DNA of 38,923 nt from Catajapyx aquilonaris. Taxonomy: Eukaryota. This document shows, in pieces, positions 13,539-37,810 of the stretch. Location of the stretch: assembly GCA_000934665.2 (NCBI GenBank), contig KZ538950.1, positions 1 through 38,923 on the forward strand, in the 5' to 3' direction. Both the position numbers and the translations under genes were made by a program. The notes beneath the pieces were generated by a model that was given only the letters and a program-made list of their open reading frames with translations, searched no databases and was not told where the DNA came from. Positions within the stretch are counted from its first letter, which is position 1; each line of letters opens with the position of its first letter.

Positions 13539-16500
13539 ATGAGGTTTGGAGCGGTGCTGCTTTGGCTCTGGGCCTTTGCGGGGCTATTGGTCCCAGGGTC
13601 ACCTACGCTACTGTTGACCACTTTGTTTCTGGCGGTCAAAGGAGGACTTCTGGCTGGGAAGATTTCAGTGGCGGGACTGCTCCTTCTGTTACTTGGACGT
13701 GAGTTGGGTTGTAGCAAGGGTATTTAAGTATTGGCCTACTCCTGGTATGTGCTCCTGATTTACTGACGGGTGTGGTCTAGTTAAACCAGTCCTGCTTGTC
13801 ACATAAGACCTACTAGGGATCTTCAGGTTATGTAAGATGTCTGAGTACAAAATGTAGCCAAACGACAACTATATTTACACATACTGGTATTTTGCCTGAG
13901 GTCCGGTTGCACCACCACCAGGAAGCAGGAAAAGAGTCAGAAATGTCAACAATGGTTAACTCAATCCCGCAAACATATCGGGATTCTACAGGGTGATCCC
14001 AATTTTGTTATAACTGATATCGCCCGATAGCAGTTTTTTGTAGCTTGTGCCGCTAACCAGGTTATTCGACTCCCTGGGAGTAATGGGGAACCTGGACAAC
14101 AAGCTACAAAAAAAATAATTCAAATTGCTATCGGGCGATATCAGTTATTTAAATAACGAACCACGAATTTGTAACACCCTGTATTAGCGTCATATGTTGT
14201 CATTGTCTACTTGCTTTAAAATGGTAGCAATAATGATGAGGTCAAATTTGACCAGTGGAAATAAGCATGTCCTGCCTCACTGCTGGACCGAGTCTTAATT
14301 TGGGCAATGGATCACCCAGTATTAATCAGTATTTTATTCAGGTTCGGAATAGCTATGCCGTCAACCATGTTTGCCCTGTATTTGTGTGATACACAATTTG
14401 ACAAAATCTAGGTTTTCCTCTTCTGTTTCTCATGTAATTCTAAATAATTTGTGCCAGTAGCTCGGAAATTAACGGCATATTACAGAAATCGTTTTTTGCT
14501 TCTTTACGACCGGACTCATTTTAGACCATCCATTTGTAAGACCGTGACCGCCTCACACACTCAAATCAATAAAACGTGACCTAATCCCCCATTTCGAGCA
14601 GGTCACTCAAGCATGACATGGCTTATAATTTTGTACACCTTCCTCCCAATTATAGCACTTCATGACCCACATTGTCCTCACTTACGCCATGAAGTAGTAA
14701 CCTGTCAGATTGGTTCTAGCAATACATTTTTTTTTTGTATGTGTGTACCGAATGCATCCTGGGAATGGAATGTAATGAAGGCGCCCTCACCCTGACCCCG
14801 AAATTGCATGTTACATTGCACTCGACATAAAAAAGCAGAGTAGAGAAAGCGCTACACCGGAACTGTTCCTCCCACACTTTTTCTATTCAAATACGAATTT
14901 GGCAGGAGCCAATCATAAGCGTGATAATATAGTAATATAGGGTGACGACCTGTTGATATGTGTGTGACAATGTTTTTTTTAAAAAAAGTTTATAGGAAAG
15001 AATCCTGGTCGGAGGAAAGCTGAAGGCCGAAATAGTCCAGAACAGAGTGATCCACTTTTTCTCATTTCACCCTGTGACTTTCTTTCGTATATGCTGTTCC
15101 CTCGACTCGTCTCGGTTATGGATGAGACTTCCTTTTCTTAATAACATGCACGAAATGCGCATAAATTGTGGAAAAAGCAAGCCTTTACACATTTCTAAAT
15201 GAGGGTTTCTGGATTGCATGTGGTGTAACTTGAATGTTGTACACCAAAGGCAATGAATTATGTTTAGAATATAATCAAAGTAAGTGGTATAACTATATCT
15301 AGTAGGAAAACTTTTACATTTCTAATTATGTTATTAATTTTTGGTAAGGTGAAGTGGGGTAAGTGCATACACGGGGTAAGTGCATACACGGGGCCGCCAT
15401 ATTGGAATGAAAATGGCTGACGACAACAAAACACGTCAGGCACTCTTTTGTGTAACTGCACATCACATCCCCACAAGAGGTGAGCATGTCAGCCATTTTC
15501 ATTCCAATATGGCGGCCAGTTTATGCACTTACCCCGTGTATGCACTTACCCCACTTCACCTTATATTAATGTCTGTAATGTGATTGACCTCTCTTTGTTC
15601 GTTGCGTTTCCTTTATTACTTGGCCCTTTTATATGGAAATGTCTCGAGGTTTTTCAACCAGCACACCCCCCCCCACAACAATGCTCTGCTTTAGGGGAAA
15701 CATTGCATTAAATGAACCGAAGGAGGTTGGTGGAATGGATAAGGCGTCCGACTGCTAATCGGGAGGTCCTGGGTTCGCAGTGGTTTTCTGTGGTTTTCTA
15801 CGGTCCTCCCAGGGAAATTCCGGGTTCGCTTCCGTAAATAATAGGCTTTCCTATCATTGACCCATCCATGGGGAGGTGCGGTGTCGGAGGGGGCTATCTG
15901 ACCCGCACCTAGGGGGGTTGTCTTGCAACATGACCCCCTGGGGGACTGCACATGACCCCTATCATAAATACAACGCACTTGCACCAGTCCCCTCCTCACT
16001 AATCCCTATTCTGATCCCTGCACCGCACCGGAGAGAAAAATGCGAAAGAAAATTCGTAAGAAAAATGGTGGTATTCCACCTCCCCCCCTAAGGGAGCCAA
16101 TGGCTCCAGCACGCGGTAGCAAATAAATAATAAATAATAACATTGCATTAAATGACTTGTGTATCAAAAAGGTAAAAGCAACCAAAATAGTATCCAATCT
16201 GCTCTGGCCAAGTTTACTCTCTCCGACAATGATAAGGCTGATGATGATGATCTGTTTTTCAGTGTTGAGTCCGATTGGAAAACGAAGCACTGACAACCAG
16301 AGGCTGACACGATCAACTCGAGACAGCATCCTTCAGCACATCACTTTGTTGGACCCTCTCAAGTGCATTCAAAGGATGGTATGCGAGATATCTTCAGTCA
16401 ATAACAGCACTGTTCTCGGCGAATATGAGAAGTTTGTCGGATCGCTGTTCTCGTAAGTACAGTAGGGCTGTATGACAATATAGTTGAATAACAATTGTCT

Positions 16501-17338
16501 TTTCGTTTCATTTGCCAGACCTGGGGAAGGAAAAGACGCCTTTCAAACAGATTCATCCAAGACAGAGAAGGTGAAAGATGCAATTGATGAAGAGGACGCA
16601 GAAGAGTCGGCTCTAGAAGCCGCATTTGAAAAGTCAGATGAATCCAGCTCATCCTCCAGTTCATCAACCTCCAGTGACGAAGAAGAGGAAGAAGAAGCCA
16701 ATGACGCTTCAGGCGAGACCGACATGAAAGCTCCAGGTTTTGGTGACTTTAACGACTTCAGAAGTTTATTTAAGAAAAAACGAACAAGGAGGTCCGAAAC
16801 AAAAAGGCCCAATGCTCGTATGATGAGTCTTGGAGATTTGGTGGACTTAATCGGAAGCAAACGTCGTTGCACAGACCCAAAAGAAGGATGTTCCATGTCA
16901 CCCGATGATATAGAAAAGGAGAACTTGGAGCGTGTCAAACGTCTGGAATCTTTCTTGCTAGGAAGGGACGTAGAGGACATGGAGGATGCCTGGAGAAGAC
17001 GTCGACGACATCTTATAAGGAACAAACGGAAAACCACCCCGGAAGCATCGTTCGGGTTCCGTTTGGCTGCTTTCCTGGGCAAATTAACAGGGTCTCGTCG
17101 CAAGTGTCGCACCTTTTTCAATTCGTGTCCGTTTACGGCCGAGGAGATTGCCAGCATGGTTCGAAACCTACACGAGTTGCTGCGCAAACACCCGAACCTT
17201 GGAAAGCTAGCTGGGGTGTCCAAGCAGGCCACCACCACGCCCTCCCCGTCTGAATTTCGCATGGACAATGAGATCGTCACTACGGAAAGTCCAGAGATGC
17301 CAAAGAGAGATGTTTACCGGCGCAGTGATAGGCCTTAA
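13539..17338 (+). CDS. Gene A: secreted prepropeptide + split DM4/DM12-like domain, 389 aa; join(13539..13698,16263..16452,16519..17338)
   Basis: Splice sites GGAC|gtgagt, tttcag|TG, TC|gtaagt, tgccag|A give a continuous 1170-nt frame. Signal MRFGAVLLWLWAFAGLLVPGSP, hydrophobic peptide, G-KR, DPLKCIQRMVCE, a long acidic/basic insert, then FRLAAFLG..CRTFFNSC. Confidence 0.85.
13989..14181. mobile_element. Small Tc1/mariner-type MITE in gene A intron
   Basis: TA|CAGGGTG ... CACCCTG|TA, with internal arms TAACTGATATCGCCCGATAGCA / TGCTATCGGGCGATATCAGTTA. Confidence 0.8.
15345..15563. mobile_element. MITE with TAAGGTGAAGTGGGGTAAGTGCATACACGGGG TIRs
   Basis: ~75-bp near-perfect inverted arms. Same TAAGG..CCTTA end type as 132-1088. 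Confidence 0.85.
15716..16138 (+). mobile_element. Full-length tRNA-derived SINE (family 2)
   Basis: A box TGGTGGAATGG (15728-15738), degenerate B box GGTTCG (15772) and an AAT-rich tail. Perfect 17-bp TSD AACATTGCATTAAATGA at 15699-15715 and 16139-16155. Confidence 0.88.
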
Positions 17339-36438: not shown

Positions 36439-36499
36439 GTAGAGTCCAACTGCCATTTTAAGCAACATGGCAATTAACTTATTTTGTTCCACAGCAATT

Positions 36500-37810
36500 A
36501 TGGAAAAGGCCTTAGTGCTGATTTTACTACTGGTACCACTGTCCAGGTGTAAATTGGTGTTTAGATACGGAAGTCGGTCATCTCCACGTGATCTCGGCAG
36601 ACAAAATGTTGCAAGTTCTTCTCAGTAAGTGTATATGATGTAATGGGCAATTTTTTTGGAGAAATAGTTGCCGCAATTGGTTTTACCACCCATTTTTTTT
36701 TTTCTCCCTCACCATATCACCTTATGCATTTCCTAGTTTTGCAAGCCCGTCTCGCACGACAAGTCCCCTTACTTATGAGACTAATCAACTCTCACATGCA
36801 TTACTTATTTGCACCTGTACAGAAGTGGAACGACCTCTGTTGACCTGTCGCAAGTGTCGGATGTCCTAAAGAGGATAAAGGAGTTCGACAAACTTAATTG
36901 CATCCCAAGAATACTTTGCCAATATCTGTCCAGCCAGTCTCTTGAGGACATTCTTCAAGGGGCGCTCTTTGGGCAACAAGGAGCGATTCCGGGGCAACCA
37001 GGAGCGATTCCGGGGCAACCAGGAGGAATCTTCGGGCAATCAGGAGGAATCTTCGGGCAACCTGGAGGAATCTTCGGGCAACCAGGAACATTCTTAGGGC
37101 AACTAGGAAGGATCTTTGGTCAGCAAAGGCTGAGAAGACGTCTGAACCGAGTGCAGCCGAAGACATTTGAGGAACCGACGCAGATCATCAGGTTATAGTG
37201 CTAATTACTGGGGATGATCCGAATGGACAGCATCCTGTGATTTGAGCGCGGGATAATGTATGTAAGGGCCGAGCAGAATCACTAATAATAGCAATGACAA
37301 TGAACAGCGTAGTCGAGATGGGGGTCATCCGGAGTTTGAAGCCATAAAAATGCGCCATAAAGGCAAATGAGATTTAGCCCCCGTTTATGGGTGCCAGTAG
37401 GTTTCACATGTGATGGGAATATGCTCGCCTCAGGCCATAAGACTATGAAAAGCCATGTCCATAAATCACAGGGTCGCTAGTTGACCTATGCGAACCGTCC
37501 CCTCTCTCTCTGCCACTTCCTGCTGCTGCATGGTTATGACTTGTGATGAATATTGCTGTGACCCTCCTGTGGGGTTGAATATGGATGACATGGGGTCTTA
37601 ATTACTTGATTGCCTTGCAGGTTCCTGGATCTGCTGAATCTGGACTCGCTGTCCTTCTATCCGTACCTGAGAGGGGCTCTGCTGGGATTCACTGTTAGAA
37701 GAGAAGACCAATGTGTCAGAGAATTCCCAACCTGTCCTCCAAACGAAGACGAGGTGTTGGATTACCTCAATAATCATCAAGGCGGATTCTTTAAGATATT
37801 TAACTCGTAA
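36500..37810 (+). CDS. Gene F: secreted DM4/DM12-like protein with GQPGGIF repeats, 227 aa; join(36500..36624,36823..37191,37621..37810)
   Basis: Splice sites CA|gtaagt, gtacag|A, AG|gttata, ttgcag|G give 684 nt in frame. Signal MEKALVLILLLVPLSRC, DKLNCIPRILCQ, YLRGALLG..CVREFPTCP..LDYLNNHQGGFF. AATAAA at 37951. Confidence 0.85.
36971..37117 (+). repeat. Coding 21-bp minisatellite, 7 units (GQPGGIF-like)
   Basis: GQQGAIP GQPGAIP GQPGGIF GQSGGIF GQPGGIF GQPGTFL GQLGRIF. Confidence 0.9.

Follow-up and report, generated by a model that had tools for sequence, protein, structure and literature searches.

The window analysed here, the whole 38,923-nucleotide stretch of Catajapyx aquilonaris contig KZ538950.1 (GenBank assembly GCA_000934665.2), carries an array of six paralogous genes, A to F, between positions 13539 and 37810. 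All lie on the plus strand and comprise three exons each (Table 1). Five of them encode putative secreted precursors in which a hydrophobic or Lys/Leu-rich peptide, ending in Gly and a run of basic residues, precedes a four-Cys domain apparently related to the arthropod family DM4/DM12. The stop-to-stop frames of the plus strand between 13.5 and 37.8 kb fall into six sets of three short exons; splice sites were set by eye on the DNA and the joins then checked by script. All six joined coding sequences are open and multiples of three, giving products of 389 (A), 205 (B), 184 (C), 170 (D), 177 (E) and 202 (F) amino acids. Exon-2 and exon-3 profiles retrieved exactly six copies from the six-frame translation of the whole window and found no seventh copy or pseudogene within it, the next best matches lying at E ≥ 0.14. 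The six co-oriented paralogs proposed in a preliminary description of this DNA are thus borne out by profiles and joins, and the five peptide strings it had given for A to E were reproduced when the exons were joined.

Intron borders are GT-AG in 11 of 12 introns. The sole non-GT donor, CAG/GCAAGT, belongs to gene E intron 1 (35299-35376), which is of GC-AG type. Intron 2 is in phase 2 in all six genes. Intron 1 is in phase 1 in A to E, where it lies within the codon of the Gly described below (C, D and E), one codon upstream of it (B) or five upstream (A), and in phase 2 in F. The gene models are supported by comparison with relatives. Joined B aligns over residues 28-204 of its 205 with P0011, a 240-residue uninterrupted frame on a 1010-base contig, at E 3e-27 and with both junctions spanned. 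L001, a genomic piece on a metagenome contig and the one locus returned by a related-locus search using a narrower alignment, has three exons as in the window genes; a phase-1 intron splits its Gly codon, and the next intron, in phase 2, sits where intron 2 of the array does.

All six products begin with Lys or Arg after Met, a hydrophobic run and small residues, a start that by eye is signal-like. In A to E this short run, with its small-residue end, is followed by a second segment of 23-53 residues (51-74% Leu/Ile/Val/Phe/Met/Ala/Trp), by Gly and a basic run, and by Ser or Ala leading into the domain. The Gly stands immediately before the di- or multibasic site in 5/5 peptide-bearing genes, as first reported, with the letters G-KR-S in A to C, G-RRKR-S in D and G-RRKR-A in E. 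Gene F has the first hydrophobic run and the domain only. The domain itself combines C-x5-C from exon 2 with C-x6-C from exon 3, its four Cys being invariant in 6/6 paralogs, and a fifth Cys lies close to the C-terminal end in B to E. The signal-peptide cut originally placed after Gly-Ser-Pro in A is doubtful. Many relatives close the first hydrophobic run with Thr/Ser-Glu/Asp-Ala/Ser and open the peptide with an aromatic or aliphatic stretch such as Ile-Phe-Phe, Ile-Leu-Phe, Val-Phe-Phe or Tyr-Ala-Tyr; this conserved junction at the end of the signal-like segment could be a signal-peptidase site.

Table 1. Exons of the six paralogs in the window and the evidence on which each was drawn
Feature	Content	Position	Strand	Evidence
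Gene A exon 1	Start codon, signal-like segment, most of hydrophobic peptide	13539..13698	+	Open frame, donor GTGAGT, phase 1
Gene A exon 2	Peptide end, Gly-Lys-Arg (16277-16285), domain first half (C-x5-C)	16263..16452	+	Acceptor TTTTTCAG; exon-2 profile E 9e-27
Gene A exon 3	Acidic Ser/Glu-rich insert with several basic runs, domain second half (C-x6-C), stop	16519..17338	+	Exon-3 profile E 2e-19
Gene B exon 1	Signal-like segment, 53-residue Lys/Leu-rich peptide (net +10)	23837..24065	+	Aligned to orthologs P0010, P0011, P0027, L001
Gene B exon 2	Gly-Lys-Arg (24999-25007), acidic linker, domain first half	24997..25195	+	DM4_12 18.1 bits; exon-2 profile
Gene B exon 3	Domain second half, fifth Cys, stop	25470..25659	+	Exon-3 profile
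Gene C exon 1	Signal-like segment, 43-residue hydrophobic peptide; final base opens Gly codon	26452..26659	+	Join script, peptide analysis
Gene C exon 2	Remainder of Gly codon, Lys-Arg (26734-26739), domain first half	26732..26894	+	DM4_12 14.4 bits; exon-2 profile
Gene C exon 3	Domain second half, stop	26976..27159	+	Exon-3 profile
Gene D exon 1	Signal-like segment, 23-residue peptide; final base opens Gly codon	31000..31132	+	Join script, peptide analysis
Gene D exon 2	Remainder of Gly codon, Arg-Arg-Lys-Arg (31322-31333), domain first half	31320..31500	+	DM4_12 18.6 bits; exon-2 profile
Gene D exon 3	Domain second half, stop	32946..33141	+	Exon-3 profile
Gene E exon 1	Signal-like segment, 29-residue hydrophobic peptide; then GC-AG intron	35145..35298	+	Join script, insertion scale, peptide analysis
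Gene E exon 2	Remainder of Gly codon, Arg-Arg-Lys-Arg (35379-35390), domain first half	35377..35563	+	DM4_12 18.7 bits; exon-2 profile
Gene E exon 3	Domain second half, stop	35627..35816	+	Exon-3 profile
Gene F exon 1	Signal-like segment alone, without peptide or basic site; intron phase 2	36500..36546	+	Join script
Gene F exon 2	Domain first half, then Gly/Gln/Pro-rich 7-residue tandem repeat (36966-37116)	36823..37191	+	Exon-2 profile E 2e-15
Gene F exon 3	Domain second half, stop	37621..37810	+	Exon-3 profile

Gene A exon 3 holds an insert of about 170 residues between the domain halves, found in no other paralog, which contains Glu/Asp behind a Ser run together with five or more additional multibasic runs. 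Given this composition, gene A could conceivably be cut at several places or heavily phosphorylated. The repeat within gene F exon 2 has a 21-base unit in 7.2 copies and places a heptad array rich in Gly, Gln, Pro and Phe inside the domain.

The identity of the domain emerges from homologs of the window proteins. Single exon-2 sequences of B, C, D and E score 14.4-18.7 bits against Pfam DM4_12 (PF07841, IPR006631), below its gathering cut-off of 22 bits, although that profile spans both exons and the window scores are those of single exons; at E ≤ 1 neither exon 2 of A or F nor any exon 3 matched. In a Pfam scan of 14 homologs, five pass DM4_12 at 23.2-25.5 bits, five are sub-threshold and four lack a DM4_12 match. 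By BLASTP, joined B matches P0010 (E 2e-19) and P0006 (E 2e-12), joined D matches P0014 (E 5e-12) and joined C matches P0008 (E 9e-10), whereas gene F is linked weakly, to P0020 (E 9e-4) and to P0023 (E 6e-9), itself without a DM4_12 match. Since homologs pass the cut-off and joined window proteins match them down to E 2e-19, the window domain is, on sequence comparison, a divergent DM4/DM12. The family relationship suggested at the outset therefore stands (5/14 homologs pass, with E 1e-9 to 2e-19), although single exons of the window do not reach 22 bits.

Searched exhaustively against 1.84 billion representatives, the HMMER exon-2 profile found 23 proteins at E ≤ 1e-3. Those with named sources come from two arthropods, the springtail Orchesella dallaii and the millipede Chamberlinius hualienensis, and many of the remainder from transcript-like contigs of about 1 kb. 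Judged by these homologs, an arthropod would be the likeliest source of the window. A word-indexed protein search returned five proteins, two of them new fragments, with the 19-sequence alignment as query, and no matches with D exon 2. In the ESM Atlas the nearest cluster with DM4_12 (31% of members) lies at a score of 0.88, a lead only as are all scores below 0.9, and bears the automatic name 'Transmembrane protein'; neighbours at 0.81 include clusters combining DUF1676 with DM4_12. Neither BRICHOS nor DUF1676 was matched by Pfam in the window exons or the 14 scanned homologs. As for the family at large, DM4/12 is counted in 30 Drosophila genes and is among the commonest domains in genes without functional information (PMC8664486). 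Among the genes that change over time in honey-bee larvae it is listed next to terms for cuticle protein, chitin binding and DUF1676 (PMC9764631), and planthopper Osiris17 and Osiris24 carry DM4_12 with four conserved Cys (PMC12825958).

The Gly and basic site can be followed in 19 of the 23 homologs, the other four being fragments that start downstream of it. In 13/19 the Gly immediately precedes 2-4 consecutive Lys/Arg, with springtail and millipede among the relatives; in four the basic pair follows Ala, Glu or Tyr, and two F-like homologs have neither Gly nor a basic run. Loss of the Gly in orthologs had been named beforehand as the finding that should count against the proposal; with the Gly kept in these 13, the check did not refute it. 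Where present it always abuts the basic run, whether this is 2, 3 or 4 residues long. A Gly directly next to the basic run is needed for amidation and not for convertase cutting. Because the Gly abuts a run of any length and persists where the intron has moved (A and B), its position accords better with carboxypeptidase trimming and amidation than with recognition by a convertase or a side effect of splicing; as mere by-product of a phase-1 intron (G/GN) it was rejected as sole cause, A and B keeping it with the intron elsewhere. After the basic run, Ser/Ala, Ile/Val and Asp are common. In the B-type relatives P0010, P0027, P0004, P0007, P0012 and L001 (1208-1664) the motif Ala/Ser-Val-Arg/Leu-Phe-Pro-Asp/Glu follows the site directly and is itself followed by a long acidic linker rich in Ser, Gln and Gly; gene B and P0011 have neither motif nor long linker.

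Between paralogs the peptides barely align, as the preliminary description had it, with global alignment z of -0.7 to 1.5 against 200 shuffles in 10/10 pairs. Between orthologs they do. In the Lys/Leu class, B shares 10-14/34 and 7-9/19 peptide positions with P0010, P0011, P0027 and L001, compared with 32-36/101 in the domain and 4-7/24 in the linker. P0013 and P0018, of a hydrophobic class with central Asp-Ser, share 11/28 in the peptide and 23/55 in the C-terminal part, and P0014 and P0019, of an Arg/Gly plus Ala/Gly/Leu class, share 21/42 and 43/123. In these alignments of three separate classes the peptides are about as conserved between orthologs as the domain and are not spacers, which argues that the peptide is selected for its sequence, beyond composition, between orthologs while it diversifies between paralogs. 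Net peptide charge is +2 in A, +10 in B, +3 in C, +4 in D and +1 in E, and ranges from +14 to +21 in the B orthologs. The C-terminal part carries the opposite charge, with +10/-12 in B and +14/-16 and +21/-20 in others (Spearman rho -0.84, n=12). Cationic peptides with charge-neutralised pro-forms are known to show opposite charges of this kind.

Topology is less straightforward. On an insertion scale that is crude, using central-position values only, the lowest 19-residue sums in kcal/mol are -0.4 for A, 0.6 for E, 3.4 for D, 3.5 for C and at least 10 for B and its orthologs; among homologs, P0014, P0018 and P0025 give 2.6-4.8 and P0013 and P0019 fall within -0.4 to 1.4. The domain is nevertheless taken to be lumenal in all members, because B-type segments cannot span the membrane, because in F, P0020 and P0023 the domain follows a signal-like run or a long polar region without a second hydrophobic segment, and because of the four invariant Cys and an N-x-S/T sequon at one loop position in 15/24 aligned sequences (manual count). 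The puzzle that follows is how anchor-grade hydrophobic segments, placed directly after a signal peptide and before a domain expected to be lumenal, would cross the membrane.

The AlphaFold2 model of P0011 (mean predicted local distance difference test, pLDDT, 75.8) comprises a peptide helix at 46-88 (83-92), a cleavage stretch at 90-103 below 50 and a domain of six helices (83-96). A domain-only model (P0006) is likewise all-helical, at pLDDT 85.3. Foldseek returned no match at E ≤ 0.001 for either the full-length P0011 model or the domain-only model. With VIA-align the P0011 model was matched through its long helix alone, with Z up to 5.2, and the best match of the domain-only model had Z 3.9 (72 residues, root mean square deviation 3.4). 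A saposin-like or other lipid-binding fold was considered for the domain and found no match in support. The absence of a convincing solved relative does not establish a new fold. Complex prediction weakly supports packing of the P0011 peptide on the domain, with a median score of 0.59 against 0.03 for the best of three controls, agreement between runs in at least 71% of contacts and partner pLDDT of at least 64, where passes at 0.60 or lower were reached by only 5/78 solved complexes and by 4/4 mismatches that passed.

We put at just under one half the probability that genes A to E encode a convertase-cleaved, amidated peptide carried by a DM4/DM12 pro-domain. The precursor would be assembled from a signal peptide, a hydrophobic or Lys/Leu-rich peptide that diversifies fast, Gly with (K/R)2-4, and an all-helical four-Cys domain of DM4/DM12 type, four modules in all. 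On entry into the endoplasmic reticulum and during transport, the C-terminal part may pack on the peptide and offset its charge. A convertase of furin/kexin type could then cut behind the basic run, within the stretch predicted to be disordered, after which a carboxypeptidase would remove the basic residues and peptidylglycine alpha-amidating enzymes would convert the Gly thus exposed to a C-terminal amide. This would yield a free peptide-amide, different for each paralog, and a free DM4/DM12 domain, with F giving the domain alone. Candidate targets of the peptide include membranes, cuticle or envelope lipid, and microbes. We infer this pathway, from entry and release through trimming and amidation to a role for the peptide, from the sequence.

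Several results weigh against such a pathway. The Gly is absent in 6/19 homologs, and much of the count of 13 comes from one clade, B-type, so that the counts are not phylogenetically independent; the charge correlation is similarly limited, with about three independent clades behind it. The peptides of A and E, with sums of -0.4 and 0.6, are hydrophobic enough for membrane anchors, and under default translocon rules they would stop transfer, leaving basic run and domain in the cytosol. Unlike in classical linear membrane-active peptides, the helical hydrophobic moment exceeded that of shuffles in 0/13 peptides (a fraction of 0.066-0.996 of the 500 shuffles attained the maximum observed over 18 residues), and the periodicity of the B-type Lys/Leu stretches peaks at about 5-5.5 residues (in P0011 at about 2.1), not at 3.6. 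The last of these findings bear above all on the membrane-active antimicrobial or cytolytic function initially suggested, which is not supported. No peptide of the 13 is helically amphipathic beyond its shuffles and 4/5 window peptides carry a charge of only +1 to +4. Motifs of kappa-B type give no support for immune-type promoters: GGGRNWYYCC has 9 matches against 3.2 expected, a number reached by 5/100 shuffles, with none in the upstream flanks of B to F, and GGGGATTYYT with one mismatch allowed has 14 against 10.8 expected. The antimicrobial label is weakened further by the anchor-grade segments of A and E and by the expression hint printed for honey-bee larvae, which places DM4/12 beside cuticle genes (PMC9764631). 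Overall, the earlier interpretation is partly supported.

Alternative explanations concern which part of the precursor does the work and whether anything is released. The DM4/DM12 domain may itself be the working secreted product, perhaps in apical matrix or cuticle, with the hydrophobic segment a discarded pro-piece that serves as tether, sorting signal or folding aid before a convertase removes it, amidation being absent or incidental. This we consider rather unlikely, although the domain is the sole part common to the six paralogs and F has it without a peptide, more homologs retain the basic pair (17/19) than the Gly (13/19), and the company of the family in print, among cuticle and chitin-binding terms (PMC9764631) and in two planthopper Osiris proteins (PMC12825958), points the same way. 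The predicted packing of the P0011 peptide on the domain would also suit a pro-piece, and the charge mirroring is compatible with this reading as with peptide release. A discarded piece could, however, do without a Gly placed right against the basic residues, and would hardly be expected to be as conserved between orthologs as the domain, charged motif positions included.

It is distinctly unlikely that the segment is instead a permanent transmembrane helix, with the basic run as its positive-inside flank, the four-Cys domain in the cytosol, perhaps binding metal, and no release at all. A basic cluster behind a hydrophobic helix is the usual cytosolic flank, the sums of A, E, P0013 and P0019 (-0.4 to 1.4) equal or fall below those of their own signal segments, and the name of the nearest ESM Atlas cluster with DM4_12 is a lead in this direction. 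Yet B-type segments, with 13-16 or more Lys/Arg and sums of at least 10, cannot be membrane helices, even though they take the equivalent place ahead of the same basic site; C and D as well as P0014, P0018 and P0025 are marginal, and F, P0020 and P0023 carry the domain directly behind a signal-like segment or long polar region. The loop sequon and the invariant Cys point to the lumen, and an anchor leaves the Gly and the S/A-I/V-D after the site unexplained. Finally, exon 1 could have been mis-joined, the hydrophobic frames then being chance frames upstream of ordinary signal-less DM4/DM12 exons. In Catajapyx it is comparison that carries the joins, but this explanation is highly improbable given that each of A to E combines a start codon and signal-like segment with a consensus donor and a phase fitting exon 2, that homologs on contigs of about 1 kb show the architecture uninterrupted and that L001 has the identical intron.

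Peptide release from a DM4/DM12 precursor would have analogues in other systems. Scorpion venom linear antimicrobial precursors (non-disulfide-bridged) have the same order of signal, mature peptide, Gly with multibasic convertase signal and charged C-terminal pro-part, with the Gly as amide donor (PMC5863496). The scorpion mature peptides are short and amphiphilic, whereas the window-type peptides have 23-53 or more residues and are not helically amphipathic, and, compared by description, the scorpion pro-part is a short charged tail where here a folded domain of more than 100 residues with 4-6 Cys is found. In BRICHOS-linked polychaete precursors of arenicin/nicomicin type, an aggregation-prone or membrane-seeking peptide is likewise fused to a folded lumenal domain and then cut free (PMC6265681). 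Unlike those precursors, the window proteins have no BRICHOS match, the peptide precedes the domain, and the domain is all-helical and without a solved look-alike. Lung pro-surfactant protein C (proSP-C) embodies the same carrier-domain idea as the BRICHOS-linked worm peptides, which are the closest analogue in this respect. For the DM4/DM12 family itself the likeness lies in the four Cys, C-x5-C and C-x6-C, and in exon-2 Pfam matches that are weak but consistent; the scores of single window exons below the cut-off set them apart. Some Osiris (DUF1676) proteins carry DM4_12 (PMC12825958), but the window genes and scanned homologs lack DUF1676 and have another architecture. A search of the literature on DM4/DM12 found no statement, in the texts covered, of an N-terminal hydrophobic peptide ending in Gly and basic residues.

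Elsewhere in the window, frames at 21948-22169 (plus strand) and 22099-22374 (minus strand) encode nearly identical peptides, so that a repeated element is probably present here as an inverted pair, and a further frame at 8366-8689 (minus strand) is related to this pair. A 42-N assembly gap adjoins a CT/Ser-Leu microsatellite at about 8250-8300, and a long ATT-type microsatellite lies at about 34400-34480. Sequence at about 15700-15800, in gene A intron 1, looks transfer RNA-derived by eye; ARAGORN and Rfam scans of the window, this part included, returned no tRNA or other match. Pfam matched none of the eight other long frames of the window.

The cluster and its relatives give the orphan DM4/12 family a concrete and testable biochemical reading, namely processing that frees an amidated lipophilic peptide. 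If released, such peptides would be missed both by routine aqueous peptidomics and by antimicrobial-peptide predictors based on amphipathicity. A broader proposal, which we hold to be unlikely as it stands, is that DM4/DM12 forms the carrier half of an ancient system spread across arthropods and dating back at least to the split between myriapods and hexapods. Each gene would supply a distinct amidated peptide, strongly hydrophobic or poly-cationic, whose solubility and charge neutrality the domain would maintain until the convertase cut. Such a carrier would be functionally parallel, with an unrelated fold, to BRICHOS with surfactant protein C or worm antimicrobial peptides. Should the architecture extend to many of the DM4/12 genes of Drosophila, approximately 30 in number, genetics would gain access to an entire class of hidden lipophilic peptides, with possible roles in cuticle and envelope lipids, the tracheal lining and defence.

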